A stretch of 64,000 nucleotides of DNA from the NCBI GenBank assembly GCA_963806555.1, contig CAWDYR010000017.1, positions 267,274-331,273 on the forward strand, read 5' to 3'. Of this stretch, positions 47,201 through 64,000 are shown one piece after another. The notes below the pieces were generated by a model. It ran no database searches. It was given only the letters and a program-made list of their open reading frames with translations, and had not been told where the DNA came from. How positions within the stretch are numbered: the first letter of the stretch is position 1; each line of letters starts with the position of its first letter. The position numbers and the translations under genes were made by a program. This stretch comes from an uncultured Bacteroidales bacterium (GTDB lineage Bacteria; Bacteroidota; Bacteroidia; Bacteroidales; VadinHA17).

Positions 47201-47342
47201 CTAAGAGAATTAAGAGTTAGAGAGTTTTGTCAAGGTGGCCATGAAGGGTTTGGCGGTAGAGGGCGCAGATTGGATTCGCAGAATTTCCTGATTTCTTTAA
47301 CTTTAGAATCTACCATGGCGATTGCATTTTTATTATTTGAAA

Positions 47343-48147
47343 TTATCCCGATTTTTCAAAGCTGTCTGAAAAGAATTCTATCAACACAGGTGCCAGAGCT
47401 TTAGGACTCACACCGTGTGTCTGGCCAGCTAATGTACGAATTTGCACATGGGGAATATATTTGCTGATTGCCTGAGCCGCATCTCGCATACTGTATTGTG
47501 CCTGCGCCGCCGTGCATGACAAGTGTCGGGATTTTTATACGTCTAAGGAGGGAAACTGGCAGGGCATGTCCTTCACCCATAACCTCACTGTCATATACTA
47601 ATGTTGGAGCCATTGCCTCCAGCCCCCGCCACATTGGCATGCGTTTTATGGCTTGAATTTGTTTGTCCGAAACACCTGCAGATCGGATGAACAAGGCGAC
47701 GGCATCTCCTTTGCGTCCCTCCTTGAGCAACTTCTTAAGTTGGCCGTAGTATTCATTGGCGGTTTTACATTCTTCGTCATCTAACGAATATGGCGCTTCG
47801 TATATGGCTAACTTTCTGACTTTTTTGTACAGTTTGGCTGCAACCTGAAGTGCAATAGCTGCACCTGAAGAATGACCATAAAGGCAAACGGTTCCTTCAA
47901 CCGCATCTATAAGTGAGACGATATCTTCAAATTCACGGCGAGGCGAATATGGTTTTGTGTCTGTACTATCACCGCGTCCTCGTCGGTCATAGCTTACGAC
48001 AGTGAAATGGGATGCAAGCAGCTTTGCTAACCTGGAACCGGACTTTCCTGAATTTAGAGCCCCGAGCACTAATATCACAACCTCTCCATGACCTGCTTTT
48101 TCATAAGCAATTGTTGTACCATCCTTTGATGTCACCTTCGCTCTCAT
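47343..48147 (-). pseudogene. alpha/beta hydrolase, apparent frameshift near 47500
   Basis: Nucleophile elbow GHSSGA. After VMHGGAG the correct frame continues AQYSMRDAAQAISKYIPHVQIRTLAGQTHGVSPKALAPVLIEFF...* (catalytic His) and ends at 47343. Confidence 0.75.
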
Positions 48148-48183
48148 GAGTTATTACAGATTTTGTAAGATCATTGAAAACCT

Positions 48184-48350
48184 CAGCTCAAACCCGGTGG
48201 GCTGTTCCAGCGTATTTGGAATTTCAGGCGACATATTCTTTAGCTTTTTTAATACGTTTTAAATCACTTGCTTAAAGCTTCTTTTCTTCCTAAAGGTCAA
48301 AGTCATTCTGAAGTACAAGCCAGAATTTTGCGGAGTTGCCAAAATAGTAA
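48184..48350 (-). repeat. ~167-bp copy (about 90% identity by eye) of the higA 3' end plus its downstream flank; decayed higA remnant
   Basis: It aligns with 51040..51208. The remnant reads ...YYFGNSAKFWLVLQNDFDL* then stops, and keeps the final KEYVA* codons. Confidence 0.8.
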
Positions 48351-48829
48351 CCTTTCGCTTTTGGCCAATCAGTTAAAACTCTATCATCAATTTTGGTATT
48401 CGGTTTTTTGCTATATCCAATATCAGCATTCCAAGGTTCAGTTATGGGCTCATAAACTAATTGGCCTTGGTTATCACCTTTAAAATCATTACAATACAAC
48501 TCCATTTTAGCTTCGATTATCTCAATCCCCTTTGGTAATTCGGATAAATCCCATTGTATTAAAAACCTCTCATCACAATTTCTGTAATCAACCTGCTTGT
48601 TTACTAAATCTTGTTTCCATTTTCCTTGAAAATATAAATTCCCTGCTCCGCTTGGATTAGATTTATCGGGGTTACAGGTACAAATATATAATTCATTACT
48701 TATTTTATTAATGACTATAGTATCAGATGGGGTTTTGCTTATCGCATTTTTATCCCCTTCAGGATTCGATCCGCATCCAGGAAAAACCGATGCACAAAGC
48801 GCAATGACTAATAATTGATTTAATTTCAT
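48290..48829 (-). CDS. DNRLRE-domain lipoprotein whose last ~19 codons derive from the higA remnant
   Basis: MKLNQLLVIALCASVFPGCGS lipobox and FLIQWDLSELPKGIEIIEAKMELYC...YEPITEPWNADIGYSKKP (DNRLRE-like). The C-terminal YYFGNSAKFWLVLQNDFDL nearly equals the HigA sequence. Confidence 0.65.
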   Translation of the reverse strand: MKLNQLLVIALCASVFPGCGSNPEGDKNAISKTPSDTIVINKISNELYICTCNPDKSNPSGAGNLYFQGKWKQDLVNKQVDYRNCDERFLIQWDLSELPKGIEIIEAKMELYCNDFKGDNQGQLVYEPITEPWNADIGYSKKPNTKIDDRVLTDWPKAKGYYFGNSAKFWLVLQNDFDL

Positions 48830-48975
48830 TTTTAGACAATTTATAGTTAGTAGGTTTACCCAATTTCTCAAATTTGTCAGCACCAGTGACCGGAGCTTTA
48901 AAAGCAGTTTGTCTTTATCCCAAGAAGTTTTTCCGGTCAATCTGATACGATTCAAGCGATATTGGTTACTGACAT

Positions 48976-49954
48976 TTAATGTTTGTAGTCATGTTCCACA
49001 ATAATTACTACTTTACCTTTGTGCGCACCTTCACCAAAATGCCTGAATGCTTCAGGAACTTCCTCTAACCTGTAAGGTTCATCTATCACGGGCTTGATTT
49101 TACCAGCTTCGAAAAGCTCATTCACATAGGCTAAATCCTTGTTTTGCTTCAGGCCAACGATACGTATTTTCTTTTTACTGGTAACAGAGATCCAGGGCCC
49201 TAGTAATAAAGCCTGTAAAAGCCTGACCATAGTACCTCCAACTGTGACATAAATTCCATCAGGACATAATGCGCGGACATAATCGAATATCGAACGCTTT
49301 GTCTTAACATCAAGAATCAGATCATAACATTGGCCGTTTTTAGTGAAATCTTCCTGTTTGTAATTAATGACATGATCAAAACCAATTGAGCGCATCATAT
49401 CCAATTTGCCGGAGCTGTCAACACCAGTAACTTCAACTCCAATATAATTTGGCAATCTGCACGGCAAATGTACCTACGCCACCACCCGCACCATTAATTA
49501 AGAGTTTTTGTCCGGAATGAATATTCCCCTTATCACGAAGACCCTGTATCGCCAGCATTGCTGCCTGAGGTATTGCTGCTGCTTCCCCGAAGCTCATACT
49601 GACAGGCTTTAGGACCAATTCGTTTTCATGAGCACAAACATATTCAGCGAAGCCTCCCCAATTGCCGCTCAGATCTCCATACACTTCATCCCCGAACTGA
49701 AACTTCTTTATCTTATTGCCAACAGCTTCAATTCGTCCTGCAATGTCGGAGCCAAGTATTTTTATTTTTGGTTTAAGCAGACCATTGATGAGGCGATTTA
49801 TGAGATCACCCTGAAGGAGGCCCAAATCCCAATCATTTATTGAAACCGCATAAATTTTTATCAGGACCTCATCCTCGCCGGGAACAGGTTTATCTACCTC
49901 TTTTAATTCAAGAACATCAGGTGTTCCGTATTTTGTATAGACAATTGCTTTCAT
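48976..49954 (-). pseudogene. MDR-family NAD(P)H quinone oxidoreductase / Zn-type alcohol dehydrogenase, 1-nt frameshift near 49450
   Basis: The N-half ends ...NGAGGGVGTFAVQIAKLY and the C-half continues GVEVTGVDSSGKLDMMRSIGFDHVI... It is a paralog of the intact 62578..63522 gene. Confidence 0.8.
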
Positions 49955-50004
49955 TTTCTATTTCATATCTGGAGTACTATTCTGCCTGTTATCAAATTGG
50001 CCAA

Positions 50005-50122
50005 ATTTAACAGGCGGTACGTCGTAAATAAAAGAAACATCGGGTGCAGGTTTTAGCAGTCCGGGGTGCAGGGTTTTGCAAAAACCATGACAAGCCCATT
50101 AATCATACCGTCCGCGTTAGGC
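50005..50122 (-). other. attC-like recombination site candidate (118 nt), the best example in the window
   Basis: Minus strand: GCCTAAC-GCGGACGGTA...TACCGCCT-GTTAAAT. Both boxes fit RYYYAAC/GTTRRRY perfectly. The arms pair (TAAC/GTTA, GG/CC, CGGTA/TACCG) with an extrahelical A on the 5' arm. The TAA stop of the upstream ORF lies inside GCCTAAC. Confidence 0.6.
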
Positions 50123-50845
50123 GTTTGTAGTGTTTATTAATCCTATAATAGTGAGAAAGTTAGAAAATAATTGTCGTCCCGTGTTTTGATAATCTGATTT
50201 AATTGTTTTAAAATCAGATCGCAGTTGTTTAGCATTAAGTTTTTGAAGGTCTGAATCCTCAATTAACCAGGATTCCAGGAGATCATTTGTTAACTCAAAA
50301 TGTGATTGAATACCATATGCCGTTTTACCTATTTTTACAATTTGATTTCTGCAGAAATCACCGGTGGCTAAAAGAGTCATCTGTGGAGTAAGTTTTACAG
50401 TCTCCCCATGTAGTTGAAAGACTGTAAGATTATCAGACAGGTTTTTAAAGATTTTATCTTTCCTTCCTTTGGAGGTTAATTTTACTTTGAAGAACTTGTT
50501 TTTGGGATCTCTGAATCCTGTTTCGTTCGTTTGACACTTTTCAACCGTGCCACCCATTGCTTTGACTAAGGTCTGAAGTCCTAAACAGATTCCGAGATAG
50601 GGAATTTGTAACTGAATAGCTTTTCTGATTAATGCAAGCTCATTTTGCATTTTCGGAGTCAAATCATTAGCGCTGTCTGGTCCCCCGAGTACAATTAGTG
50701 CACTGTAATTTTCAATGGCTTCAATTAATGTTGAATTATCAAAATCAATTATTTGGTATTCAAGGTTATGCTCTTTCAATAGAATTTCGATGAGTCCGGG
50801 ATTTTCCCTGGGCACGTTTCTAATAATCAGAATTGGTCTGGTCAT
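50117..50845 (-). CDS. class I glutamine amidotransferase (GATase1) family protein
   Basis: ALIVLGGP...PYLGICLGLQ (nucleophile Cys)...GIQSHFE (His). Confidence 0.8.
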   Translation of the reverse strand: MTRPILIIRNVPRENPGLIEILLKEHNLEYQIIDFDNSTLIEAIENYSALIVLGGPDSANDLTPKMQNELALIRKAIQLQIPYLGICLGLQTLVKAMGGTVEKCQTNETGFRDPKNKFFKVKLTSKGRKDKIFKNLSDNLTVFQLHGETVKLTPQMTLLATGDFCRNQIVKIGKTAYGIQSHFELTNDLLESWLIEDSDLQKLNAKQLRSDFKTIKSDYQNTGRQLFSNFLTIIGLINTTNA

Positions 50846-51039
50846 AAGTATTTGTTTCAGTTGTAAAGCACCGTATGAAATTCTGGTTCTCTTACTTGCT
50901 TTGATCCGGGAAAGATGTCCTGGATCCTATTTATTATTCGAAATGAAATATTCTGGTCGGGAAGCAATTTCATCAGAGTTCGAAAAAGTTCGAAATAAAT
51001 CTTCCGAAATATTTCGCAATAAAATCCGTAGGAGCGGGG

Positions 51040-51208
51040 TCAGTTCAAACCCGGGGGGCTGTTCAATCGCATTTGGAATTTTATGCGACATATTCTTTAG
51101 CTTTCTTAATACGTTTTAAATCACTGGCTTTAAGTTTTTTTTCTTCCTCAAGGTCAAAGTCATTCTGAAGTCCAAGCCAGAATTTTGCGGAGTTACCAAA
51201 ATAGTAAC
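51040..51208 (-). repeat. intact-side copy of the ~167-bp duplication (higA 3' end + flank)
   Basis: See 48184..48350. It contains a hairpin-like AACCCGGGGGGCTGTT motif that also occurs at 48193 and, perfectly, at 61976 (AACAGCCCGGTGGGCTGTT). Confidence 0.8.
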
Positions 51209-51380
51209 TTAGTCTGAGAGCAGTATTCGCAGTAATGCTTCTGTGTCCTTTTATTATTTCAGAAGTTCTTGTCTGAGGAATTCCAATGTCCTTTGATAAT
51301 CTGTAGGCAGATATTTTTAAGGGTTTGAGGAATTCTTCCAACAGTATTTCACCCGGGTGGATATTTGCTAACTTTTCCAT
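51081..51380 (-). CDS. higA: HigA-family antitoxin (XRE HTH)
   Basis: MEKLANIHPGEILLEEFLKPLKISAYRLSKDIGIPQTRTSEIIKGHRSITANTALRLSYYFGNSAKFWLGLQNDFDLEE is the canonical HigA/VapI pattern. Confidence 0.9.
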   Translation of the reverse strand: MEKLANIHPGEILLEEFLKPLKISAYRLSKDIGIPQTRTSEIIKGHRSITANTALRLSYYFGNSAKFWLGLQNDFDLEEEKKLKASDLKRIKKAKEYVA

Positions 51381-51385
51381 TGTTT

Positions 51386-51670
51386 CTATTTATGATAGTC
51401 AATGATTCTTACTTCACCTGCATTTCCATCTTCCCATTTGAAAACAATTCTCCATTGGTCATTGATCCTGATACTGTAGAAGTTGCTCATTTTCCCTGAT
51501 AACTTTTCCAACATGTTAGAAGGTGGGGTTCTTAAGTCTATGAGGTCCTGTGAGTTGTTAAGCATTCTTAATTTTCTCCTTCCTATTTGTTGGATTTCTG
51601 CCGGTAGATTTTTAACTCTATCACCGTTCCATATTTTCTCAGTCTCCCTGGATCCAAAAGAGGAAATCAT
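51386..51670 (-). CDS. higB: HigB-type toxin (plasmid maintenance system killer, RelE/ParE superfamily)
   Basis: 94 aa: ...RETEKIWNGDRVKNLPAEIQQIGRRKLRMLNNSQDLIDLRTPPSNMLEKLSG...YSIRINDQWRIVFKWEDGNAGEVRIIDYH. It lies 5 nt upstream of higA. Confidence 0.88.
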   Translation of the reverse strand: MISSFGSRETEKIWNGDRVKNLPAEIQQIGRRKLRMLNNSQDLIDLRTPPSNMLEKLSGKMSNFYSIRINDQWRIVFKWEDGNAGEVRIIDYHK

Positions 51671-51860
51671 ACACGTGTCGCGTTACTAACGACAAAGATA
51701 AGTATTATAAATCAAATTGTCAAATCTCAAACGGGATGCTACTACATGACTCATTACGGGAGTCTGTCTGCGTGACAAACAAATGGTTAAAACATGACAC
51801 CACCCGGGGGGGCAGACCAGAGTCTGAAAGTTCTTTAGTAGTTTTATATTCTTAAAAATG

Positions 51861-52829
51861 CTACTCATAGTTTACCAGAGTAATATCGTCAAAATAAGCT
51901 GTCCCTGTTGATTTTCCGTTCAAAATCAAAAACAGGTTGATACTTTCTGTCAATGAGATATAATAGGGGATTTCAACAGCGTATTCAATAAAGTCGGATG
52001 TCCCACTTAAATCTTTTACTCCCTGGGTCGTAGAAAAGAAAGTAAACTTAGGATTCGCATTACCCCTGATTGCAAAGTATACTCCTTTATCAGTAACGTT
52101 ATCTAATTTAATCTTTACCTGGAGAACCAGCTTTGTGGATTGCTTAATACCTTGAGGAATAAGAGTATACACCCAATAAGAAAAATCATCGGTCGAAGTT
52201 GATGGTGAATCAGATTTGATCGCCAGACAAGTGCCCGGTGAAACAAAAACAGAAGAGCTTATTTCTCCTTTACTTGTGCAACCCGGGGATTTAAAGTAAA
52301 GCCAGGAATTTGAAGCCGCATTAATTGTATCCATAAGAATAACTTTTGCAGTTTTTCGTTCAACTGCCCAGTCAGGTTGTGGTGAAGATGGAATGAATAG
52401 TATATCCAGATAGTATTTCCGCTTTTCCGGAGTAAATTCCGAATAGCACGAATAGAAGCCGTTCGGTGCCATAATTGTCGTGAAATCACCATTTGGGAGT
52501 ATTGTATTATCATGCATCCGGCCCAATATTGCATGCCCTAATTCATGGAAAAGTAATATTTCTTTATTAATATCACTGGAATTCTCCCAACAGTAAGACC
52601 GTATTACCACATCGTTAGTCAAACCGTAACCGCAATAGTACTTCAAAGTATCTCCATAAGTAACTTTTAATTTACTGATATCAATTTTGACGTTTCTTAA
52701 ATCAGCTTCAGTCACAAAACGATCAACATATTCCTGAAAGGCGGGATCTATTACAGATTGATCTTCCTTTTTACATGAGTTTGAAAATATCAAACAAGTT
52801 ACTATCATCAGGAGATTAATCCTTTTCAT
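51861..52829 (-). CDS. lipoprotein with an HExxH zinc-metallopeptidase motif (hypothetical)
   Basis: MKRINLLMIVTCLIFSNSC lipobox, then LLFHELGHAILGRMHDN. There is no further family recognition. Confidence 0.55.
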   Translation of the reverse strand: MKRINLLMIVTCLIFSNSCKKEDQSVIDPAFQEYVDRFVTEADLRNVKIDISKLKVTYGDTLKYYCGYGLTNDVVIRSYCWENSSDINKEILLFHELGHAILGRMHDNTILPNGDFTTIMAPNGFYSCYSEFTPEKRKYYLDILFIPSSPQPDWAVERKTAKVILMDTINAASNSWLYFKSPGCTSKGEISSSVFVSPGTCLAIKSDSPSTSTDDFSYWVYTLIPQGIKQSTKLVLQVKIKLDNVTDKGVYFAIRGNANPKFTFFSTTQGVKDLSGTSDFIEYAVEIPYYISLTESINLFLILNGKSTGTAYFDDITLVNYE

Positions 52830-52941
52830 ATGATTTTTGTTTAGGGTTAGCAATGAATTATTAATCACAAAAATTATGCAATTTCTTGTTCTCTTAAGAC
52901 TGAAACTCTCGTATAATCTGCCATCTGGTCGGTTGAATTAA

Positions 52942-53304
52942 TTATTTTCTTTTTATAGTCTGTCTTTTACTATTTGTCATCTCAATAGCAAAATCTTCGT
53001 ATCCTATTTCTTTAATCCTGTTGATACATGCTGACCTGTCTGAATTAAAAATATAACCAAATACTTTTGAAATAAAATTGTTGTATTTTTTGCACTCCAT
53101 TAACTCTATGGTCATACAATCAGCGCAACCTGGAAGTTTATTTTCCATACAACACTGTCTGATCTTACACCATGAAGCTTTAATATTATCTTTACATCCC
53201 GGACATTTTTCCTTTAAATAAGATCTGCAAGCTCCGCAATATAATCCACAGAAGGCTATCAGACTCTGATCAGCCACTATTTCTTTTTGGTTTGTTGCTT
53301 TCAT
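52942..53304 (-). CDS. DUF3795 Cys-rich protein
   Basis: FCGLYCGACRSYLKEKCPGCKDN...WCKIRQCC...CADC. It is a paralog of 62063..62494. Confidence 0.7.
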   Translation of the reverse strand: MKATNQKEIVADQSLIAFCGLYCGACRSYLKEKCPGCKDNIKASWCKIRQCCMENKLPGCADCMTIELMECKKYNNFISKVFGYIFNSDRSACINRIKEIGYEDFAIEMTNSKRQTIKRK

Positions 53305-53473
53305 ATTTCTGATATTATTAGTGTTTCTTCCTCAATTCTTTCGGTGAAATCTTTTTCACTTAATTTATGTCTTTGCCTGTTTCAAATATATAAAAATTGT
53401 CCTTTTCTATATGGCTTTGAAGTTATGGTTAAGCCTTTTTGTCCGATTAAAATGGTGATCAAGCTGGGCTTAA

Positions 53474-53551
53474 ACTTAACGGCCCGGTAGTATGGTAAGT
53501 TGCCGTCGGAGCCTGCCCTGAGTACAGTGTATAGAGCCCTATGTATTAGCT
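53474..53551 (-). other. degenerate member of the short attC-like element family
   Basis: ACTTAAC...TATAGAGCCCTATGTATTAGC shares the ...TATAG(A/T)G(C/T)CCTATG(T/A)RT(T/A)AGC arm with 55875..55933 and 58561..58616, but its two arms no longer pair well. Confidence 0.3.
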
Positions 53552-53723
53552 CGTCCTATTTATTTAACTGCTTATCCCTTTCGGTCAAGTAAAATATAAT
53601 ATGACAATCGGTAATCATGAATTAATCAAGTGTTACATAAGTAAATTTATAACCCCTTCCCTCCTGATATCTTAAAAACCGCGGAGCGGTTACAACAAGG
53701 AAGCCACTTATGTGGCGATATGT

Positions 53724-56804: not shown

Positions 56805-56843
56805 AGGTTCATCTATCACGGGCTTGATTTTACCGGCTTCGAA
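56805..56843 (-). pseudogene. 39-bp relic of a third MDR oxidoreductase copy
   Basis: AAGGTTCATCTATCACGGGCTTGATTTTACCGGCTTCGAA matches 49075..49113 with 1 mismatch (encoding FEAGKIKPVIDEP). Confidence 0.7.
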
Positions 56844-56892
56844 TGCCTTGAACGCAGGTGTGCGCTTTTGGTGCGATGTAAATTTCAATCGT

Positions 56893-57570
56893 TTACCATA
56901 AGAATGGAATAATCTTATATCGCACCTTTTTTTTATATTCGATATAACCGTCTAATCCTTTTTCTAATATAAACTCTTCGTTCTTCATTCTCGTGCTCAT
57001 CTGAAGCGGGAATATTATTAATGGAATTAATGCATAGAATGACCCTAATACCAGTGGCATAAACATAAAGATTAGTATAGCTGCAGAGTACATAGGATGT
57101 CTTACAATGCCGTATAGTCCTGAATCAATGACTTTTTGCTTTTCCTGGATTTCTACCACTCTGGATGCATATGAATTCTGACGCATAACCATAAAGAACA
57201 GAATGTAACCTGTCAGCACGATGATAGCAGATATTACTACAACCGGCAATGGAACTGACGACCACTGAAATCTATAATCTAATCCTGATATAATGAATGC
57301 TGACAAAAATATTATTGATGTAAGCAAAACGACTTTCTTTTGTGTCTTTTCTTTTTCGTTTGTATTCATGCGCTTAAATAAAAGTTCAGGGTCACGGGTT
57401 ATCAGATAAACTATCACAAATAGCATTGGAATAAACAATACTCCCATAAAAAGCCATGCATTCCAGAATTTGATTGATCCGGCCGGAATAAACAGCAGAG
57501 CTGAAATAATTATAGTCGCAGGAATAAATCTGGCTAATGCCATGCTTATTAGCTGTTGCTTCTTGTACAT
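56893..57570 (-). CDS. isoprenylcysteine carboxyl methyltransferase (ICMT/PEMT) family membrane protein
   Basis: 5-6 TM segments and a C-terminal GLYGIVRHPMYSAAILIFMFMPLVLGS motif. Confidence 0.75.
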   Translation of the reverse strand: MYKKQQLISMALARFIPATIIISALLFIPAGSIKFWNAWLFMGVLFIPMLFVIVYLITRDPELLFKRMNTNEKEKTQKKVVLLTSIIFLSAFIISGLDYRFQWSSVPLPVVVISAIIVLTGYILFFMVMRQNSYASRVVEIQEKQKVIDSGLYGIVRHPMYSAAILIFMFMPLVLGSFYALIPLIIFPLQMSTRMKNEEFILEKGLDGYIEYKKKVRYKIIPFLW

Positions 57571-57646
57571 TTTAATAAGTTTAAGTCGGTGGTTAATATT
57601 AAGAAAAAGTTCAAGGTCATGTTTTAAATTTTTACAAATCTTATTT

Positions 57647-57922
57647 TCAAAATTTAACTTGAGGTTGGTTCATCTCATATAAATAAATGTATGAACTAAA
57701 AAGTTCGATACCAAAGATTTTGTTATTTTCTTCATCAACATCCATTTTGAGAATTTTTGGTGTCAATTTGAAAAGAATCGGAGGGGTGCCTGAATCTTCC
57801 CATGTGGTTTTAATTAAAGAAACAGTATCTGTTATTTCACGGTTATCAACATTAAGATCGATATCCAATGCATAAATGAAACTTTGGGTAGAAGAAACTG
57901 ATGTCAGCTTGTCATCAGGCAA
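57647..57922 (-). CDS. hypothetical 91-aa protein (TTG start; possibly a gene fragment)
   Basis: Only the ORF supports it; no motif was recognised. It starts 28 nt after the arr stop. Confidence 0.3.
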   Translation of the reverse strand: MPDDKLTSVSSTQSFIYALDIDLNVDNREITDTVSLIKTTWEDSGTPPILFKLTPKILKMDVDEENNKIFGIELFSSYIYLYEMNQPQVKF

Positions 57923-57950
57923 TCAATGGGGTGGTCGGGGTTCGTAGGGT

Positions 57951-58379
57951 TTAGTCCTCAATTGCCTCAATACCTTGTTGCCTGAGTCGTTCAAGGTTGT
58001 CTTTCATAGTCTTAAGCTGCTCCGGTGTATGTCCCTGCCATTCTGTAATTTCACTTATGACCCTAAGCGGAAACATAGAACGGTATGACTTTGTCGGATT
58101 ACCTGGGAATCTTTTGTCAGTTAAGTTTGGATCGTCCTCAATTGGGCCTGTTGGCTCTACTATATAAATTCTTTCACATCCTTCACCCAAAGCAAGTTCA
58201 GCACCCCAGATTGCAGCATCCAGGGTGGCTGTCAGGTAGATATATTTTGCCTTCTTTCTCTGTCCGTAATTTGAATGAAAGCCGGGTTCAATAAGGTCCC
58301 CTTCTTTCAAATCTGCCTTTGTCCCATGATAGAATGTCACTGAGATCTGGCTGTTAGTCGTTGCTGTTGATTTGTCCAT
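57951..58379 (-). CDS. arr: NAD+--rifampin ADP-ribosyltransferase
   Basis: FYHGTKADLKEGDLIEPG...YIYLTATLDAAIWGAELA...IYIVEPTGPIEDDPNLTDKRFPGNPTKSYRSMFPLRV...WQGH...IEAIED tracks my recollection of Arr-2/Arr-3 almost block for block. Confidence 0.88.
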   Translation of the reverse strand: MDKSTATTNSQISVTFYHGTKADLKEGDLIEPGFHSNYGQRKKAKYIYLTATLDAAIWGAELALGEGCERIYIVEPTGPIEDDPNLTDKRFPGNPTKSYRSMFPLRVISEITEWQGHTPEQLKTMKDNLERLRQQGIEAIED

Positions 58380-58492
58380 CTCTGTCGCTACCAGGCAGGC
58401 AGGGTTTGTATTGTGTACACCTTAAAAACCATTCATAAATTCAACAGCTTCAGCCGTTCTTTTGACTGAAGAAAGTTTTCGTATCTTTTTTT

Positions 58493-58546
58493 CAAGACCG
58501 CAGGACCGCAAGACCGCAGGACCGCAAGACCACAAGACCACAAGAC
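58493..58546. repeat. 6.75 tandem copies of an 8-bp unit (CARGACCR)
   Basis: CAAGACCG CAGGACCG CAAGACCG CAGGACCG CAAGACCA CAAGACCA CAAGAC, in the 5' leader of arr. Confidence 0.9.
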
Positions 58547-58560
58547 TTTTTTGGGATTTA

Positions 58561-58616
58561 TTTCAACGTGGGCATTACCGGGTGCTGCGCACCCTATAGT
58601 GCCCTATGTGTTAGCA
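58561..58616 (-). other. short (56-nt) attC-like recombination site candidate
   Basis: Minus strand: TGCTAAC-ACATA-GGGCA-C-TATA-GGGTGC-GCA-GCACCC-GGTAA-TGCCC-AC-GTTGAAA. Pairings are AAC/GTT, GGGCA/TGCCC and a central 6-bp stem. The 5' arm is longer (ACATA against AC). It starts 10 nt after the ABC gene stop. Confidence 0.55.
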
Positions 58617-58625
58617 CATGTATTG

Positions 58626-59291
58626 TTATTGTCTCTCTGGCAGATATCCCCAAATAATCAGGTCTTGTTTTGTTTTTACTGGTTTTAGTCCCCCATCAAA
58701 TAGTTGGTAATATTTGTTTGCAACATCGAGTACATTTCTGTAATCGTGGTCAGTCAGGATAATCCCTTTTTTAATGGATTTGTCCTGGATCATGTTTCTA
58801 ACTAGCTCTATATGAAGAGGTGAAATCCCATTAAAAGGTTCGTCCAGAAGGACAAAGATAGAATCCAAATTCAGTAGTAATTTGACCTCCAGATATCTTG
58901 ATTCTCCACCAGATAAATTGCCAATTTTAGTCCCGGTTACTTTTGAAAGTACTTCATCTTCAAGAAATACTTTTTGATCAAAGTCATCAGAATATATCTC
59001 AACCACCTTGTTTACTGTAATGTTTTTGGGTAAAAAATTGTCCTGCGGGAGATATGAGATAATGTTTTTTGACTTAAAAGGTTGGGTTAGTACTTCATCA
59101 TTGATCCTGATGAATTTGTAGTCGGTAAAAAGAGTTCCAAAAATTATCTTTAGTAAGGTTGTTTTGCCTGTTCCGTTTCTTCCAAGAATTCCAATAATAT
59201 CTCCCGGCCGGCATTTTAGAGCAATATCTGTCAAAACCTGTTTGTCCCCAAATGATTTGCGAATACTGTCGACTTCAAGCAGGTTAGACAT
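58626..59291 (-). CDS. ABC transporter ATP-binding protein
   Basis: Walker A GRNGTGKTT, signature LSGGESRY and Walker B FVLLDEPF. 221 aa. Confidence 0.85.
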   Translation of the reverse strand: MSNLLEVDSIRKSFGDKQVLTDIALKCRPGDIIGILGRNGTGKTTLLKIIFGTLFTDYKFIRINDEVLTQPFKSKNIISYLPQDNFLPKNITVNKVVEIYSDDFDQKVFLEDEVLSKVTGTKIGNLSGGESRYLEVKLLLNLDSIFVLLDEPFNGISPLHIELVRNMIQDKSIKKGIILTDHDYRNVLDVANKYYQLFDGGLKPVKTKQDLIIWGYLPERQ

Positions 59292-59616
59292 ACTGTAAAA
59301 TGTATAATAATGGTAGAATGAATATCAAATGCAGGGTGTATGTGAGTATCAATAGTTTGATTTTGCTTATCCCCATGTTATAATAGAAATAGTATTCGTT
59401 TTTTCTGCTTATCTCAAAGTAGTATGCAGAAAGGAGGAAACCACCAGTCATTATCCAGAATGCAAAGGCTGAAATTACGAGAAACATTGGGGAGTGTGAA
59501 GATTCTTTTGAAAGAAGCAAGTAGGATAAAAATGTCAAGACAGTTGAAAAAACGATATTTAATTTCAGAATTGTCTTATTATAAGGCAGAAGAAGTCTAG
59601 TCATGTCTTGTCCCAA
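59284..59616 (-). CDS. 110-aa membrane protein translationally coupled to the ABC ATPase
   Basis: Three hydrophobic helices and an 8-nt overlap with the downstream ATPase gene. Confidence 0.5.
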   Translation of the reverse strand: MGQDMTRLLLPYNKTILKLNIVFSTVLTFLSYLLLSKESSHSPMFLVISAFAFWIMTGGFLLSAYYFEISRKNEYYFYYNMGISKIKLLILTYTLHLIFILPLLYILQYV

Positions 59617-59764
59617 TTGAATATGTTGTTAGCATATGTATTTTTTAGCCGCGCGATGGAAGAGTCCCCGTCGACAGTATCTATCGTATTGATTTTCAAG
59701 TTTTCTAAGGCCGTAGAGAGTCGAAGACACTGACCGACTGAAAGGAGCGTCAGTGCGAAGCATG

Positions 59765-59809
59765 GGTTTTGTTGTGACAAAAAAATGACTTTTATTGTCC
59801 GTGTTAGCG
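59765..59809 (-). other. conserved ~45-nt attC-arm module (inverse-core side)
   Basis: Minus strand: CGCTAACACGGACAATAAAAGTCATTTTTTTGTCACAAC. It is homologous to 50078-50122, 61179-61224 and 63628-63673. The partner arm here was not identified. Confidence 0.4.
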
Positions 59810-59842
59810 TTTCGTTCAGGCTTAATTAATTATCATGATATC

Positions 59843-60442
59843 TTAGTCATGTTCTAGTTGTTCTATCTCGTCAATATCTTTATTGAGCTTTTTGTAACGT
59901 TCATAAATTGAATATTTAAAAGTAAGATACATTGATGAGAAGAAAACCAGGACAATCAATAGCAAAGGTAGAATTGAGAAAAAATCTAACGTGATAGTAA
60001 TCTTATGAATAATCATTAATAGAAATCCTATCATTGCCAGAGGCATTAAAAGATATCTTATTTTGGTGGTCTTTATTTTATATTTCTCAAGTTCTGCAAT
60101 AACCTTTTTTATGGACAATACTGGCATAGTGAAATCAATTTCACGAATCAGTGTGAAATATCTGATATCCCAGATATAGTTGATAATATAAACAGGTAGA
60201 AACAAGCCTAATCCAATAAAAAATTTCGTAGAAATATTAAATTGAACATTCAGAATCAGTATTAATGAAACAAACAGAATAGGAGAAAAAATCCATAATC
60301 CTGCATTGATTTTTATCCAGTTTAATCTTTTCCGGGGTTTTTCAATTAATATATGTCTCAATACTTCTTTATTAAGGCGGGTATTTTCCGTTATTTTTTT
60401 ATCATATTCCTGCCATATATTTTGTAATTCTGCTAATTCCAT
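59843..60442 (-). CDS. polytopic membrane protein downstream of an ECF sigma (possible anti-sigma/partner)
   Basis: 199 aa: an N-terminal soluble ~40 aa (MELAELQNIWQEYDKK...) followed by 4 TM segments. It lies 4 nt after the sigma gene. Confidence 0.5.
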   Translation of the reverse strand: MELAELQNIWQEYDKKITENTRLNKEVLRHILIEKPRKRLNWIKINAGLWIFSPILFVSLILILNVQFNISTKFFIGLGLFLPVYIINYIWDIRYFTLIREIDFTMPVLSIKKVIAELEKYKIKTTKIRYLLMPLAMIGFLLMIIHKITITLDFFSILPLLLIVLVFFSSMYLTFKYSIYERYKKLNKDIDEIEQLEHD

Positions 60443-60446
60443 TTTG

Positions 60447-60950
60447 TTAAATTTTTGAAGTGGCTAAGTTTTTGAGTTGTTCTTTAATTCTGCTAATCCT
60501 TGTACCGACATTTGTCTTTGAAATCCCGGTTATCTCAGATATTTCATCATGTGAATTGCCATCCAGATAGAGCAGGATTATTGCTTTATTTAACTGATTT
60601 AACTCATCAATACACTGGTATAAGATTTCAGAATGTGATGAGTCCGGAGGTTCCGTTATCCAGACTGGACTTTCAAATTGTTTCAGATCAGCCGGAAAAT
60701 ACAACTTGTCACTTTTCTTTTTACGGTTAAAATTCAGGGAAGTGTTAATTGCTACACGGTAGATCCAGGTAGATATTCTGGAATCTCCTTTAAATCGTCC
60801 AAATGATTTCCAAAGTTCCAGAGTAATGTCATTAATCAAGTCCTCTTTATCATGCATCGAATTTGTATATGCTCTCGAAATCTTTAAAAGAATCCCGATA
60901 TTTTTTTCTAAAATATCAAGAAATATGTCCTTTTGTTTATTGTCTGTCAT
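60447..60950 (-). CDS. ECF-type RNA polymerase sigma-70 factor
   Basis: Region 2 (DLINDITLELWKSF...TWIYRVAINTSLNF) and a region 4 HTH (SHDEISEITGISKTNVGTRISRIKEQL). Confidence 0.85.
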   Translation of the reverse strand: MTDNKQKDIFLDILEKNIGILLKISRAYTNSMHDKEDLINDITLELWKSFGRFKGDSRISTWIYRVAINTSLNFNRKKKSDKLYFPADLKQFESPVWITEPPDSSHSEILYQCIDELNQLNKAIILLYLDGNSHDEISEITGISKTNVGTRISRIKEQLKNLATSKI

Positions 60951-61110
60951 TTGTCATGCTGTTACTGTTTTTGGTAAAAATTATTCTGTGATCACATTTT
61001 ACCCAATTAGTAACAGAGCCTGGTTAAAAATCACATAGGACGATGTATTTACTTTTGAAGAATTAATTCATTGAGCTGTTAGCGTTTCGCGCACCCTGAG
61101 GGGAGCGAAG

Positions 61111-61224
61111 GGTGGGTGCAAGAACCATTACAAATCTGTCTTGTGAGCAGGAGCACCTGCCTGCCGGCAGGCAGGAAAGCAAAAACCGTGACAAACAACT
61201 TACCCATATTGTCCGTGTTATAGC
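61111..61224 (-). other. attC-like element (about 114 nt) after hicB
   Basis: Minus strand: GCTATAAC-ACGGACAATATG...perfect palindrome CCTGCCTGCCGGCAGGCAGG...GATTTGTAATG-GTTCT. Arm pairing is imperfect (AAC/GTT, CAA/TTG). It shares the 45-nt module. Confidence 0.4.
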
Positions 61225-61237
61225 TAGTGTTATTATT

Positions 61238-61639
61238 TTAAAGTCTATGTATAAGGTTTATTTCCAGGAGTTCTTGTCCGATCTGATGAATGCCAAGTAG
61301 AATTTTCTCAGTTTGGGCATCAGAAGGTCTCTTGCGACCTTGCACATATTGTGAAAGCAGTGTCGGATTCATGCCTATCTTATTAGCAAGAAACTTTGCA
61401 TTTATAACTTTATAATATTGGAAGAATTGTTTAAAGTCAATGTCAAACTTAAGATTCTCCTGAGCAATTACAATTTTCTCTTCTTCAAAGTAGAGATTTG
61501 CAGCTTCAAGGGCATTATTTATTAACTCGGGTACTGTTCTGCCCGTAGTATAAATTGGATATATCTCAGAAAAAGCTGAAAAACCAGTGTCTGTTTTTTC
61601 AACCATCATTTTTATCTTTTTATTTGTCGTTTTCATCAC
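61238..61639 (-). CDS. hicB: HicB-family antitoxin with a C-terminal HTH
   Basis: MVEKTDTGFSAFSEIYPIYTTGRTVPELINNALEAANLYFEEE..., then an XRE-like FLANKIGMNPTLLSQYVQGRKRPSDAQTEKIL. Confidence 0.8.
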   Translation of the reverse strand: MMKTTNKKIKMMVEKTDTGFSAFSEIYPIYTTGRTVPELINNALEAANLYFEEEKIVIAQENLKFDIDFKQFFQYYKVINAKFLANKIGMNPTLLSQYVQGRKRPSDAQTEKILLGIHQIGQELLEINLIHRL

Positions 61640-61650
61640 ACCTCAAATTT

Positions 61651-61845
61651 CTAATTGTCTAACTTTATTCCGGCATCCTTGAGAATCTTTTTCTCTAAAC
61701 CTTTACCAACCTCCTGACTTCCATGATTTGGAAAGATGATAATCCCTGGTTTTTTATTATGCTTAAGTTTTACATGTGATCCTTTTTGTGAGATCGGAAA
61801 CCATCCATCTCTTGTCAGGATCTTAAATAATTCAGAACATTTCAT
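61651..61845 (-). CDS. hicA: HicA-family mRNA interferase toxin
   Basis: MKCSELFKILTRDGWFPISQKGSHVKLKHNKKPGIIIFPNHGSQEVGKGLEKKILKDAGI is the canonical YcfA/HicA pattern. Confidence 0.85.
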   Translation of the reverse strand: MKCSELFKILTRDGWFPISQKGSHVKLKHNKKPGIIIFPNHGSQEVGKGLEKKILKDAGIKLDN

Positions 61846-61935
61846 TGACAAATTGAATCACAAATATGCTACAAAGGTAAATAATAATTTACTTTCTCGC
61901 AAGGAAATTATTATCGGAATTGGTACTGGCATTAG

Positions 61936-62052
61936 CTATAATGGCCCGGCAATAAAGAGGGCCGGGCGTTTAGGAACAGCCCGGTGGGCTGTTGTCTCTG
62001 CTTAAGCATAACGGCCAGGCAATAAAAGGCGTTTTATTGTCCTTGTTATAAA
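61936..62052 (-). other. cluster of three hairpins: two attC-like mini-palindromes flanking a perfect 7-bp stem-loop
   Basis: On the + strand: B is CTATAAT-GGCCCGGC-AATAAAGAG-GGCCGGGC-GTTTAGG (61936-61974). T is AACAGCCC-GGT-GGGCTGTT (61976-61993). A is GCATAAC-GGCCAGG-CAATAAAA-ggcg-TTTTATTG-TCCTT-GTTATAA (62006-62052). Confidence 0.5.
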
Positions 62053-62062
62053 CCGTTTATTA

Positions 62063-62494
62063 TTAAAGCTTCGAGCAGGCAAGACATTTGTCCCGGTGAA
62101 CACTTAATGTTGCTCCACAAGCCATACATTTTCTTCTTTCTGTCTCGAATGCAAGAAAGTAATCTATTCCTTTCTCTTTTATCATGATAAGATTTTCAAG
62201 AACACTTGTGTTGTATTTTGTCCTATATCTTTTATCAAGTTGTTTTAATCTCAGGCATGGATATTTCTGGCATTCATAGCAGAACTTAGAATCTGTTTTT
62301 TGTAGTAGATCACAATTTCTGATGACACAATGAACTCTTGCTTTACCTTGATCTACTTGCCAACATCCCGGGCATTTATTCTTTGGTCTCATATAGCCAA
62401 TGCAGGAACCACAGTTCATTCCGCAAGGAGCCAGCATGGATTTTTCAAAAGTGACTGAGGTGTTATAGGTTTTATTGGTTGCAGAATGTCTCAT
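62063..62494 (-). CDS. DUF3795 Cys-rich protein (second paralog)
   Basis: CGMNCGSCIGYMRPKNKCPGC...CVIRNCDLL...FCYECQKYPC...CMACGATLSVHRDKCLAC. Confidence 0.7.
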   Translation of the reverse strand: MRHSATNKTYNTSVTFEKSMLAPCGMNCGSCIGYMRPKNKCPGCWQVDQGKARVHCVIRNCDLLQKTDSKFCYECQKYPCLRLKQLDKRYRTKYNTSVLENLIMIKEKGIDYFLAFETERRKCMACGATLSVHRDKCLACSKL

Positions 62495-62577
62495 ATCATG
62501 ATGAATTTTCTATTTGTGCAGTATACAAAAAACTTTCTTTTGGGCAGGATTTCAATGGTTTATAACGGCCCGTCAAA

Positions 62578-63522
62578 TTAGTTACATATAGTTATTGCTA
62601 CACCTCCTTTTTTGTGTCCTTTTCCTACATATTCGTGAGCTTCAACAATTTGTTCCAAAGGATAACTTCTATCAACGACTGGTTTTATATGACCATTTTC
62701 AATCAGCTCTTTGATTAAAGCAAGACGGTTTGAGTCTAATATTAGTTTTCCATCATCAATTGATACGTATTTTCCCTTTGGGGTAAGAGCCTTTTTGCAC
62801 GCTTCCTTTAATTTTGAGGTTTTAATTTTACCAACTGCATCAAGGATAAAATCATATTGCTTTATAAGGTTAATAGAATCCTCTTTAGTGTAATCAATTA
62901 CTGTATCTGCTCCCAAAGATTTCACCAGTTCTATATTCGATGTACTGCATACACCGGTAACTTCCGCCCCAAGGTACTTAGCATATTGAACTGCTGTAGT
63001 CCCGGAGGTTCCTGAAGCTCCATAAATAAGCACTTTTTGTCCGCGTTGAATATTTCCTTTTTCCATATATTGAAATGCTAAAAGTCCGCCATAGGCTGCC
63101 ACAGTCGCTTCTTCATAGGATAAATTATTTGGTTTTAGTGCCAGACATCCATATGTCGAATCTGTCTCTTTCATGCATTTGTACTCAGCATATGCACCAA
63201 GTCCAAAACCTGTGAGCCCATAGACCTGGTCACCTGGTTTAAATCTCTTTATGTTTTTACCTGCTGATTCAATTTCTCCTGCCAGCACCAAACCTATTAT
63301 AGACTTTCTCGGTTTTGTCAAACCAAGCATTATTCGCATCGGGATCCAAAATTGAATAGGTATTTGAGAACCCCGAATGAAAATGTCACTTGCTGTTACT
63401 GCTGTAGCATATATTTTTATGAGTACTTCATCATCCTTAGGAGCAGGTTTTTCAACCTCTTTGAGTTTAAGAACTTCAGGTGGTCCGTATTTTGTGCATA
63501 TAATTGCTTTCATTTTTTCCAT
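62578..63522 (-). CDS. MDR-family NAD(P)H quinone oxidoreductase / Zn-type alcohol dehydrogenase (intact paralog)
   Basis: MKAIICTKYGPPEVLKLKEVEKPAP...GASGTSGTTAVQYAKYLGAEVTGV...GHIKPVVDRSYPLEQIVEAHEYVGKGHKKG. Confidence 0.85.
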   Translation of the reverse strand: MEKMKAIICTKYGPPEVLKLKEVEKPAPKDDEVLIKIYATAVTASDIFIRGSQIPIQFWIPMRIMLGLTKPRKSIIGLVLAGEIESAGKNIKRFKPGDQVYGLTGFGLGAYAEYKCMKETDSTYGCLALKPNNLSYEEATVAAYGGLLAFQYMEKGNIQRGQKVLIYGASGTSGTTAVQYAKYLGAEVTGVCSTSNIELVKSLGADTVIDYTKEDSINLIKQYDFILDAVGKIKTSKLKEACKKALTPKGKYVSIDDGKLILDSNRLALIKELIENGHIKPVVDRSYPLEQIVEAHEYVGKGHKKGGVAITICN

Positions 63523-63553
63523 ATCACATATTTTATTGATTTGATGTATACAA

Positions 63554-63677
63554 AGCAGGTAAGTGGGCAGGGGAGGGGTCCGGGTTTGTCCCCAGGTTCT
63601 GGTCCCGGTAGACGACTCAGAACCCTCGCAAAAACTGTGACAAACTTATTTACTTTTTTGACCATATTAGCTGCTGT
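63554..63677 (-). other. attC-like element (about 124 nt, boxes degenerate)
   Basis: Minus strand: AGCAG-CTAAT-ATGG...TTTGTCACAGTTTTTGC...CCAC-TTAC-CTGCT. Arms pair as AGCAG/CTGCT, TAA/TTA and TGG/CCA. It starts directly after the upstream stop. Confidence 0.35.
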
Positions 63678-64000
63678 TTATTTCATTCCTGTTAGCACTT
63701 TTTCTAATATTAAATTAAATTCTGTCGGTTTTTCTATCATTGGATAATGTCCTGTTGCAGAGATAGTTTCCACTTGAAAACTATTTTTACAATGGTTTTT
63801 CAGTCCAGTTTCGTTTGTTGGAAAACCGTCATTATTTATTAAATACAACTTGTAATTAAGCTGTTCTAATCTTTGTGCATCGGTGTAAGCGTATTGCATT
63901 TGGTTCATAAATGTTCCATAGCCAATAACGGAATCGCTATTTGCAAAATCAGTTTTTACTCTGTCTTTCACTTCCTTTGAAGTTGTTGGGTGAAAAAGCA
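63678..64000 (-). CDS. alpha/beta hydrolase, C-terminal part (gene starts beyond the window end)
   Basis: ...ISATGHYPMIEKPTEFNLILEKVL is the typical catalytic-His C-terminus. The frame is open to position 64000. Confidence 0.6.
   Translation of the reverse strand, partial: LFHPTTSKEVKDRVKTDFANSDSVIGYGTFMNQMQYAYTDAQRLEQLNYKLYLINNDGFPTNETGLKNHCKNSFQVETISATGHYPMIEKPTEFNLILEKVLTGMK

Follow-up and report, generated by a model that had tools for sequence, protein, structure and literature searches.

How a run of short, functionally unrelated genes came to be gathered on one strand beside a tRNA gene, and by what means such genes might be exchanged, is the question raised by the last part of a 64,000-nucleotide stretch (here called the window) of contig CAWDYR010000017.1 from an uncultured Bacteroidales bacterium of the VadinHA17 lineage. 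A preliminary description of this DNA had interpreted positions 47.2–64 kb as the cassette array of a sedentary chromosomal integron or a cluster of attC sites lacking an integron integrase (CALIN). That interpretation holds in part. A cassette array with attC-like folded sites is indeed present, but the recombinase of related arrays is not IntI, the main sites measure approximately 390 nt, and sites are not carried along with the genes they adjoin. We consider it likely that the region represents a partly decayed portion of a chromosomal cassette array, at the end farthest from the integrase, and that this array belongs to an integron-like platform widespread in environmental Bacteroidales. 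We call the platform integron-like rather than canonical because the recombinase has no IntI-specific domain and the unit of a cassette with its own attC was not observed; the main sites are also oversized.

As seen in relatives, the platform consists of three parts. The first is a XerA/IntI-like tyrosine recombinase of approximately 500 aa, lacking the IntI insertion and bearing two N-terminal domains. The second is a putative attI-like site (...ATAAAC-RAG/TTAGG, the slash marking the junction) just downstream of the recombinase gene, where new cassettes differ between strains. The third comprises co-oriented cassettes of one or two genes, separated by structured elements with paired ends.

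Structured elements with paired ends

Four of the palindromes in the window had been described as sharing an arm of approximately 45 nt, and this was borne out: the arm sequence TTGTCAYRGTTTTTGC matched four times against 0.25 expected, a number reached in 0 of 100 shuffles, and the matches were confined to the minus strand of the array. A scan of one genome per species with GGACRRTA-N8-20-TTGTCAYRGTTTTTGC returned at least 120 loci, the individual loci from other genomes or metagenome-assembled genomes (MAGs) being given L-numbers below. Among the matches listed, almost all arm-bearing loci belonged to Bacteroidales or 'Rikenellaceae' MAGs from soils, sediments, fens and digesters. Iterated nhmmer searches defined a repeat family of at least 307 copies in at least 120 loci outside the window genome. 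Within each locus all copies lay on the same strand, typically 1–1.5 kb apart, and arrays reached at least 80 kb, with copies in blocks across 208–288 kb of a single contig.

Two types of element were distinguished. Type I elements had a median length of 392 nt (range 141–672 in 172 complete copies); an intact example in L004 runs for approximately 390 nt from GCTAAC-ACGGA-CAATATGGG to CCCATATTG-CCGGGCC-GTTAGTG. The two ends, YTAAC-NCGGA-L'' and L'-CCGGGCC-GTTAK, are mutually paired. The octamer following GGAC and the octamer preceding GCCGGGCC were perfect complements in 91 of 131 pairs and occurred in at least 10 variants, such as AATATGGG/CCCATATT, GGTATGTT/AACATACC and AATAAAGG/CCTTTATT. 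RNAalifold applied to 33 diverse copies predicted three helices: a terminal stem of approximately 20 bp (P1), a helix in which C-NN-TTTTTGC pairs with GCAAAAA-N'N'-G to enclose approximately 290 nt (P2), and a third enclosing approximately 100 nt (P3). In a direct count on the alignment, 90 % of cells were paired, compared with 39–51 % when the partner was slid by one to three columns, whilst double-change cells numbered 157 against 65.6 +/- 6.5 in shuffles (0 of 500 shuffles as high). At the three positions outside TAAC/GTTA only 42 % were paired, and in a second count the pairing equalled the shuffled rate; this chance-level pairing indicates that complementarity stops exactly at the AAC/GTT core.

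The resulting stem comprises an R box (TAAC/GTTA), a spacer of 5 and 7 nt (NCGGA/CCGGGCC), one bulged A and an L stem of 9–20 bp. The plan of the type I ends is that of attC, namely an R box, an unpaired asymmetric spacer and an L box, here with a very large conserved 'variable' region. This interior carries eight to nine direct copies of [G/T][T/C]ACC-NN(N)-GA[C/T], one every 30–40 nt, with repeats of the GTACCGCGAC type; the motif occurred approximately 520 times in forward and five times in reverse orientation, and resembles the R''-spacer core CTAACACGGAC. The shared arm of approximately 45 nt could also be taken for a short hairpin or terminator (ACGGACAA/TTGTCACGG followed by TTTTT). We rejected this reading, since the partner of the 5' arm lies approximately 390 nt away and TTGTCAC-NN-TTTTTGC pairs with the distant GCAAAAA-N'N'.

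Type II elements are shorter, at approximately 60–65 nt, and read GCTAAY-ACATA-GGGCTTCAT, a GC hairpin and ATGAAGCCC-AC-GTTGAAM, with a covarying L box. They were found three times in the window (58560–58622, 55873–55940 and, as a hybrid, 53474–53549) and also in L110, L115, L124 and L052. The RYYYAAC and GTTRRRY boxes proposed earlier for the palindromes were a partial match: type II boxes fit them well, but the actual boxes are YTAAC with GTTA(G/T)nn or, in the short type, with GTTGAAM. By the attC size criterion of 57–141 nt, the type I median of 392 nt falls outside the range, whilst type II elements and the short window sites fall in or near it.

Two side observations concern type I elements elsewhere. 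A 32-nt hairpin, CCCGCTTTTTTATTGAAAAAGCGGG, was present at one position in many, though not all, type I elements of one genome (L029, L020; CAVPCP010000008.1), which suggests within-genome homogenisation or copying of elements. Type I elements were also found on contigs binned as Saccharibacteria, Pirellulales, Gracilibacteraceae, Cloacimonadota, Acholeplasmataceae, Verrucomicrobiota, Gammaproteobacteria, Fibrobacter, Pelotomaculum and Aminicenantes (among L010, L028, L039, L051, L062, L065, L068, L080, L083 and L115). These contigs were mostly short, L080 and L115 deriving from long ones (40 and 324 kb), and the pattern could reflect mis-binning or inter-phylum transfer.

In the window itself we identified nine attC-like sites, all on the minus strand, all intergenic and all within the array. 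All six palindromes located in the preliminary description proved to be genuine members of the repeat family, to which 59774–59810, 53474–53549 and 62560–62582 were added. The nine sites are:

50005–50122, minus strand: short, complete type I site, with GCCTAAC (R''), GCGGA spacer and CGGTA (L'') at one end and TACCG (L'), CCT spacer and GTTAAAT (R') at the other; the ends pair in the DNA fold, and nhmmer matches the site to the repeat family.
53474–53549, minus strand: hybrid site combining a 5' arm of type II (CTAAT-ACATA-GGGCTC) with a 3' arm of type I (CCGGGCC-GTTAAGT); repeat D10.
55873–55940, minus strand: degenerate type II site, R'' decayed to CTTATT and followed by type I-like GCCGTTAGCA; repeat D13.
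58560–58622, minus strand: complete type II site of approximately 60 nt, with R'' GTGCTAAC, ACATA, L'' GGGCA, a GC hairpin, L' TGCCC, AC and R' GTTGAAA; DNA fold z = -3.6, and L-box covariation with the homologues in L110, L115, L124 and L052.
59774–59810, minus strand: truncated type I site, 5' arm only (CGCTAAC-ACGGA-CAATAAAAG); repeat D3.
61104–61224, minus strand: truncated type I site retaining the 5' arm, the 5' strand of P2 and approximately 60 nt of interior, 3' arm absent; 75–92 % identity to many loci and an nhmmer match to the family.
61936–62052, minus strand: minimal complete type I site at 62006–62051 (TTATAAC-AAGGA-CAATAAAA, loop CGCC, TTTTATTG-CCTGGCC-GTTATGC; DNA fold z = -4.6), with an extra orphan 3' arm at 61936–61958.
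62560–62582, minus strand: orphan type I 3' arm (TTTGAC-GGGCC-GTTATAA) directly 3' of the stop codon of an MDR gene.
63554–63677, minus strand: decayed type I site, with 5' arm GCTAAT-ATGGT-CAAAAAAG, P2 strand GTCACAGTTTTTGC and a weak 3' arm; repeat D4.

Both arms are thus retained in about four of the nine sites (50005–50122, 62006–62051, 58560–58622 and 53474–53549), and five are truncated or decayed. An 8-nt tandem repeat, CAAGACCG, present in 6.8 copies at 58493–58546, lies just downstream of the complete type II site.

Recombinase, entry site and chromosomal setting

The preliminary description had anticipated an IntI-type tyrosine recombinase with its specific insertion. In related arrays this expectation failed. 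A tblastn search with IntI1 over all of the at least 120 listed loci, 715 kb in total, found no canonical IntI; five recombinase genes were recovered, all without the insertion. In four loci selected by the repeat motif (L067, L109, L063 and L021, the last with a frameshifted copy), a tyrosine recombinase of approximately 500 aa lies upstream of the array and co-oriented with it, and no repeats occur on its far side. Loci were also picked by the integrase alone, and all five informative ones (L122, L123, L124, L205 and L206) carried co-oriented type I elements downstream; L121 fell outside the informative set because its contig ends 800 nt after the integrase gene. All array starts seen carry this recombinase family, which is large, with more than 6600 proteins at E <= 1e-20; those that bear a source name are called XerD, site-specific recombinase or site-specific integrase.

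The C-terminal 275 aa of the recombinase contain the Phage_int_SAM_4 and Phage_integrase domains, and scored as follows against the nearest models:

NCBIfam XerA: 215 bits, cutoff 220.
NCBIfam integron integrase TIGR02249: 188 bits in two stretches, cutoff 265.
NCBIfam XerD: 183 bits, cutoff 330.

The nearest solved structures were archaeal XerA (33 % identity, collinear) and then VchIntIA. Where VchIntIA has 68 aa the recombinase has 25, indicating that the IntI-specific region of approximately 43 aa is absent. An AlphaFold2 model (pLDDT 73.7) placed an extension of approximately 225 aa before the catalytic core, consisting of tandem beta-beta-alpha-beta-beta-alpha-beta domains (residues 1–73 and 129–197) joined by a disordered linker. 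The N-terminal domains matched no family, and a fold search with the full model returned matches to the catalytic domain only. Two further features of integrase-bearing loci may be recorded here. A 299-aa XerA/IntI-like recombinase without the N-terminal extension is encoded at L115 4748–5647 (minus strand), inside the array of the Aminicenantes-binned contig and divergent from a type I element 90 nt away, and a G-rich tandem repeat (CAGGCTTCAGGCGG-like) lies directly 3' of the integrase stop codon in L121 (approximately 11520–11780).

An entry site was apparent from two loci of different samples, L207 and L209, which encode an identical integrase (P0015). They share 2259 identical nt, a stretch that takes in the integrase, a 198-aa gene and the following 110 nt, and diverge completely right after ...ACTAACGATATATATGAGTTAG (ending GAGTTAG). 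Past the break, L207 continues with TTAGCTG and an M4 peptidase cassette, whilst L209 continues with TTAGGCT and two small open reading frames (ORFs), beyond which comes a type I element. Seven integrase loci (L067, L207, L205, L124, L206, L021 and L122) contain the motif ATAAAC-RAGTTAGG, 60–840 nt after the integrase or the 198-aa gene. On these sequence comparisons, the junction behaves as expected of an attI site, in that first cassettes differ and the break falls at a GTTAG box like that of the element R'. It was seen in relatives' loci and not in the window. The 198-aa gene, which is conserved and lipoprotein-like, separates the integrase from the attI-like site in one subclade (L207 9552–10148; L021 approximately 4180–4760; L124, degraded) and is absent from L067, L109 and L122; its product could be an accessory factor.

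The chromosomal position of the array was examined in 80 metagenomic loci (819 kb) carrying the large aconitase subunit gene found at 45160–46395 of the window (74–81 % amino acid identity). In nearly every one of these loci tRNA-Arg comes next after the aconitase genes, and in the window the array does end beside it, as previously stated:

47127–47201, plus strand: tRNA-Arg(TCT), identified by ARAGORN and Rfam; integrase-distal boundary of the array and a conserved chromosomal landmark.

Relatives with and without an array occur at this same locus. In the empty-site relatives L150 and L152, tRNA-Arg is followed directly by the backbone genes C0 (Peptidase_M50), C2, C5, C1 (Lnb_N) and C4 (MoxR), whereas L139, L161, L185 and L191 (each with at least 2.5 kb of downstream sequence), together with the short L158 and L163, carry type I elements there on the minus strand. 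None of the window cassette genes was found at tRNA-Arg among the syntenic loci. L121 has the order C4 (minus), C1 (minus), C2 (plus), C0 (plus), small ORFs, integrase (plus) and array, which when flipped reads array (minus), integrase (minus), C0 (minus), C2 (minus), C1 (plus) and C4 (plus). Together with the empty-site synteny, this indicates a platform bounded by tRNA-Arg and C0, the integrase lying beside C0 and the array extending towards the tRNA. The integrase of the present genome is accordingly predicted past 64 kb on the minus strand. An integrase beyond the window end had been proposed before, and the proposal fits this synteny, since the L121 integrase abuts the backbone that follows tRNA-Arg in empty-site relatives.

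The same tRNA-Arg is a general insertion hot spot in the lineage, with unrelated blocks in L133, L134, L149, L154, L155 and L178; inserts between tRNA and backbone include an MFS-like 387-aa gene and a surface protein of 420–600 aa. In L182, approximately 8 kb after tRNA-Arg is occupied by ten co-oriented minus-strand ORFs of 159–225 aa, with no homologues in the compared loci and no type I or II matches, which may be an array with another site type.

Cassette exchange and competing explanations

Under the reading favoured here, the element would fold, most likely as single-stranded DNA, and the recombinase would cut and exchange strands at the TAAC/GTTA box. Strand exchange would join cassettes at the attI-like site, and would excise or reshuffle them between elements. 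The internal direct repeats may serve as arm-type sites bound by the two N-terminal domains, as the AlphaFold2 model and the motif statistics suggest; in this respect the system recalls lambda-type integrases, which likewise combine extra N-terminal DNA-binding-like domains with multiple direct accessory repeats near the crossover site. It differs from them in an N-terminal fold without family match and in having a cassette array, instead of a phage att site, as its putative substrate.

Evidence of exchange comes from ORF modules shared between genomes. A module common to L029 (2427–3224) and L004 (6118–6914) was 97.7 % identical end to end, another common to L004 and L114 was 79 % identical, and modules that adjoin in L022 stand apart in L084 and L029. 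Several observations nevertheless weigh against the proposed mechanism. On both sides, identity between shared modules collapses within approximately 30–45 nt of entering the flanking element, and orthologous modules have downstream elements that are not mutual nearest relatives; co-inheritance of either the upstream or the downstream element with a shared module was not found for L029/L004 and related modules. A canonical attC travels with its cassette through a single crossover between G and TT of R', and modules that move without their own downstream element therefore depart from the canonical model. Products of recombination, circular cassettes among them, were not observed. Wobble counts showed no strand preference, with approximately 22 G-U against approximately 16 A-C pairs in the RNAalifold table and 36 against 44 in a second count outside position 12. 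In the window, neither an integrase nor an attI site was seen, leaving the array there without a recombinase, and many junctions lack any site (e.g. between the four genes in 55949–58379).

The discordance between modules and elements can possibly be explained in two ways. The long repeats may undergo rapid homogenisation or mosaicism by homologous recombination; in one genome, elements that are otherwise 77 % identical contain blocks of 95 % identity. Alternatively, crossovers may occur at both module ends, as in recombinase-mediated cassette exchange (RMCE), at sites sharing arms and having 7- and 5-nt spacers. Since ORF modules are apparently swapped without flanking elements, exchange may follow a chemistry other than attC x attI, such as a two-ended one. 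The L''/L' covariation indicates that folding matters under either explanation.

Taken further, the same observations could be accounted for by double-stranded exchange without any folded site, either by a double crossover at the module ends or by homologous recombination between long repeats. Viewed as duplexes, R' (CCCATATTG-CCGGGCC-GTTAGnn) and the reverse complement of R'' (CCCATATTG-TCCGT-GTTAGnn) would be heterospecific Xer/dif-like sites, as in RMCE or pdif modules. The movement of modules without either flanking element, breakpoints in the terminal arms on both sides, the mosaic elements and a catalytic core closest to XerA all speak for this. Archaeal XerA and bacterial Xer, with the pdif modules of Acinetobacter plasmids, resemble the present system in that nearest core (33 %) and in modules flanked by arm-sharing, inverted core-like sites. 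Independent duplex sites, however, need neither L''/L' covariation nor the conserved helices P2 and P3, whose strands lie approximately 290 and 100 nt apart, and the attI-like junction is a single sharp site. Xer acts in chromosome resolution on one 28-bp duplex dif site, unlike the elements of these arrays, and pdif modules use host XerCD, without the dedicated integrase, attI-like entry site or long folded elements present here in relatives' arrays; the XerC/XerD duplex sites that flank pdif modules measure 28 bp and have a central region of 6–8 bp. The sites described above are the termini of a covarying 390-nt structure, and a dedicated integrase heads the array in relatives. We regard exchange without a folded site, in either form, as rather unlikely.

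A canonical sedentary chromosomal integron or CALIN, with a true IntI further along the contig and ordinary attC sites that IntegronFinder would score, is in our judgement improbable. A CALIN is defined by two or more attC sites that score with the covariance model and lie no more than 4 kb apart, with no IntI inside 4 kb. The canonical reading draws support from the type II sites of approximately 60–65 nt, whose R'' (GCTAAY) and R' (GTTGAAM) fit RYYYAAC/GTTRRRY, from the window sites 50005–50122 and 62006–62051 being in or near the canonical size range, and from the layout of the array and its toxin-antitoxin cassettes, both typical features of chromosomal integrons. Against it stand the exclusive recovery of insertion-less recombinases from the 715 kb of array-bearing loci, the 500-aa family at every array start seen and a main site type of approximately 390 nt. 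Integrons are moreover regarded as essentially a proteobacterial feature, and RefSeq surveys find almost none in Bacteroidetes, with only one complete integron reported from Bacteroidetes genomes by IntegronFinder 2.0 (PMC9024848).

It is very unlikely that the elements of approximately 390 nt are structured RNAs, such as insulators, terminators, processing signals or non-coding RNA, in a variable island that the integrase merely integrates at tRNA-Arg, even though three covarying helices are typical of functional RNAs and tRNA-Arg is an insertion hot spot in relatives. The repeats matched no Rfam 15 family in the window (gathering threshold) or in L004, L005, L031 and L123 (E <= 0.1). A-C mismatches were about as frequent as G-U pairs, and pairing ends exactly at the AAC/GTT core, at which strains also diverge in the attI-like site. 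The integrase is on the backbone side and not beside the tRNA, and arrays of at least 80 kb with cassette shuffling fit a simple island poorly.

Finally, generic palindromes of the repetitive extragenic palindromic (REP), bacterial interspersed mosaic element or miniature inverted-repeat transposable element type, possibly spread by the Y1 (REP-associated tyrosine transposase-like) transposase whose hairpin-flanked gene lies in the array at 53695–54413, are scarcely credible and this reading was set aside: the Y1 hairpins are confined to the flanks of their own gene in the window, and the array repeats are strictly co-oriented, unlike transposing elements, absent from the other 47 kb and, in 819 kb of relatives, found only at the tRNA-Arg locus (nine of nine matches after tRNA-Arg, minus strand), so that a genome-wide scatter, which the preliminary description had named as a sign of generic REPs, did not appear in the DNA covered.

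Cassette genes and wider meaning

The gene content of the array agrees in most respects with the preliminary description. All ORFs with family support from 47401 to 63971 lie on the minus strand, as claimed, and the three plus-strand ORFs of at least 85 aa are each antisense to array genes or over repeats. Pfam and NCBIfam assignments upheld the unrelated functions, and Pfam both toxin-antitoxin pairs, HigB-like_toxin/HTH_3 and HicA_toxin with a HicB-like partner. The lower GC content, previously judged by eye, was computed as 0.343–0.389 for 48–64 kb against 0.386–0.504 in the remaining window. The features other than the sites are:

47401–48147, minus strand: alpha/beta hydrolase cassette ORF (Pfam Abhydrolase_6, E = 6e-14).
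48183–48351, minus strand: higA remnant with downstream sequence, a duplicate of 51040–51208 (direct repeat D1, 91 % identity over 169 nt); ORF 48290–48955 reads through it.
48976–49954, minus strand: MDR/zinc-ADH pseudogene with a 1-nt insertion (Pfam ADH_N and ADH_zinc_N_2 on two ORFs).
50117–50845, minus strand: class-I glutamine amidotransferase cassette ORF (Pfam GATase, E = 1e-21), its stop codon overlapping R''.
51081–51670, minus strand: HigB/HigA toxin-antitoxin cassette (Pfam HigB-like_toxin, HTH_3).
51861–53304, minus strand: 335-aa lipoprotein-like ORF and DUF3795 ORF, with no recognisable site between them.
53695–54413, minus strand: IS200-like Y1 transposase, gene at 53798–54313 (Pfam Y1_Tnp, NCBIfam IS200; inverted repeat I1).
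54713–55540, minus strand: DUF5128 beta-propeller cassette ORF.
55949–58379, minus strand: glutaminyl cyclase, ICMT, a 91-aa ORF and the rifampin ADP-ribosyltransferase Arr (Pfam), with no sites between the four.
58626–59616, minus strand: cassette of an ABC ATPase and its partner, a small membrane protein.
59843–60950, minus strand: cassette of an ECF-type sigma-70 factor and a downstream membrane protein.
61238–61851, minus strand: HicA toxin (Pfam HicA_toxin, E = 7.5e-20) and HicB-like partner.
62063–62494, minus strand: second DUF3795 cassette ORF, with a 57 % identical homologue in L051.
62578–63522, minus strand: intact MDR/quinone oxidoreductase cassette ORF.
63678–64000, minus strand: 3' part of a cassette ORF leaving the window; the array goes on past 64 kb.

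The paralogues and relics reported earlier were largely confirmed, namely the higA remnant, the two DUF3795 genes and an MDR relic (56801–56843, 95 % identical to 49071–49113 over 43 nt; direct repeat D8). The exception is one of the two MDR genes, 48976–49954, which is a single gene with a 1-nt frameshift and hence a pseudogene. Its intact homologue in L108 is 90 % identical; homology begins approximately 20 nt before the ATG, and L108 ends at the contig edge. The Y1 transposase unit is an insertion into the array and stands outside the cassette system; it is flanked by inverted 55-nt repeats, each with a hairpin (ACCTCCGGT-NNN-ACCGGAGGT) that is unique to these flanks within the window. In L123/L207, a Y1_Tnp gene is likewise present, upstream of the integrase. 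The truncated and decayed sites, siteless junctions, pseudogenes and relics, and the IS200-like insertion together give this array segment an old and eroded appearance.

Homologues of the window MDR, HigBA, HicAB, DUF3795, ICMT and sigma genes occur in arrays of unrelated MAGs. Those of HigBA in L090 (84–88 % amino acid identity) are placed between type I elements, and those of HicA and its partner in the L030 array are 78–88 % identical. The two toxin-antitoxin pairs may help array retention. Integrase-proximal cassettes of relatives (L122 16287–21476; L206 11633–16984) include defence-type genes, encoding an nSTAND NTPase, a TIR protein, a restriction-modification (RM) methylase, and NTase/HEPN and HepT pairs. 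Outside the array and unrelated to it, a cobalamin riboswitch lies at 29664–29878 on the plus strand (92 bits against a gathering score of 31.5).

Integrons are defined by the extra domain of IntI and by small attC hairpins. The Vibrio superintegron (IntIA, attIA and attC sites of the Vibrio cholerae repeat type) shares with the present platform large co-oriented arrays of one- or two-gene cassettes with unrelated functions and toxin-antitoxin pairs, family-specific similar sites with paired, covarying ends (AAC/GTT R box, unpaired spacer and L box), a tyrosine recombinase at one end, an attI-like site with a variable first cassette, and a GC content below that of the host. Unlike Vibrio-type integrons, the recombinase here has no IntI-specific domain, carries an N-terminal extension of approximately 225 aa and is co-oriented with the cassettes; the main sites are approximately 390 nt (141–672) instead of 57–141 nt, with two extra helices, eight to nine internal repeats, spacers of 5 and 7 nt and a single bulged A; and ORF modules move without their own downstream site. 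Integrons with an inverted integrase (Treponema denticola, some Planctomycetota, Cyanobacteria and Chlorobi) are similar in that integrase and cassettes point in the same direction and the hosts are not Proteobacteria; according to the literature, they differ in retaining the IntI insertion and in having attC sites of canonical size that the attC covariance model detects.

The chances seem to us about even that these arrays constitute an undescribed class, characterised by an insertion-less XerA/IntI-like recombinase with two N-terminal domains, the attI-like site, three-helix elements of approximately 390 nt with eight to nine repeats, and arrays of at least 80 kb. Full-text literature searches found no description of this platform, which is no proof of novelty. 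It would apply the logic of the integron (an integrase, an entry site and cassettes with folded sites) with another recombinase family and sites approximately four times larger, across hundreds of Bacteroidales genomes from the environment and in arrays the size of the Vibrio superintegron. The platform is probably missed by standard integron finders and, if the reading is true, would be invisible to IntegronFinder.

In a 2026 permafrost study, 97.4 % of contigs with 'integron-type' recombinases had no detectable attC, and a novel attC was proposed (PMC13323075). Several of the arm-bearing MAGs considered here come from the fen system of that study, and the platform offers a concrete candidate for the 'novel attC' behind such contigs in permafrost soils; an undescribed class, if confirmed as such, could explain part of the attC-less 'integron-type' recombinases in soil metagenomes (PMC13323075). 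With cassettes that carry arr, toxin-antitoxin pairs and defence-like genes (TIR, HEPN/NTase and RM), these arrays point to a hidden reservoir of mobile accessory genes. How a simple Xer-like recombinase might recognise folded sites in the absence of the IntI insertion also becomes testable with this platform. Should the platform prove functional, cassette capture would extend further than thought, in phylogeny as well as in mechanism.

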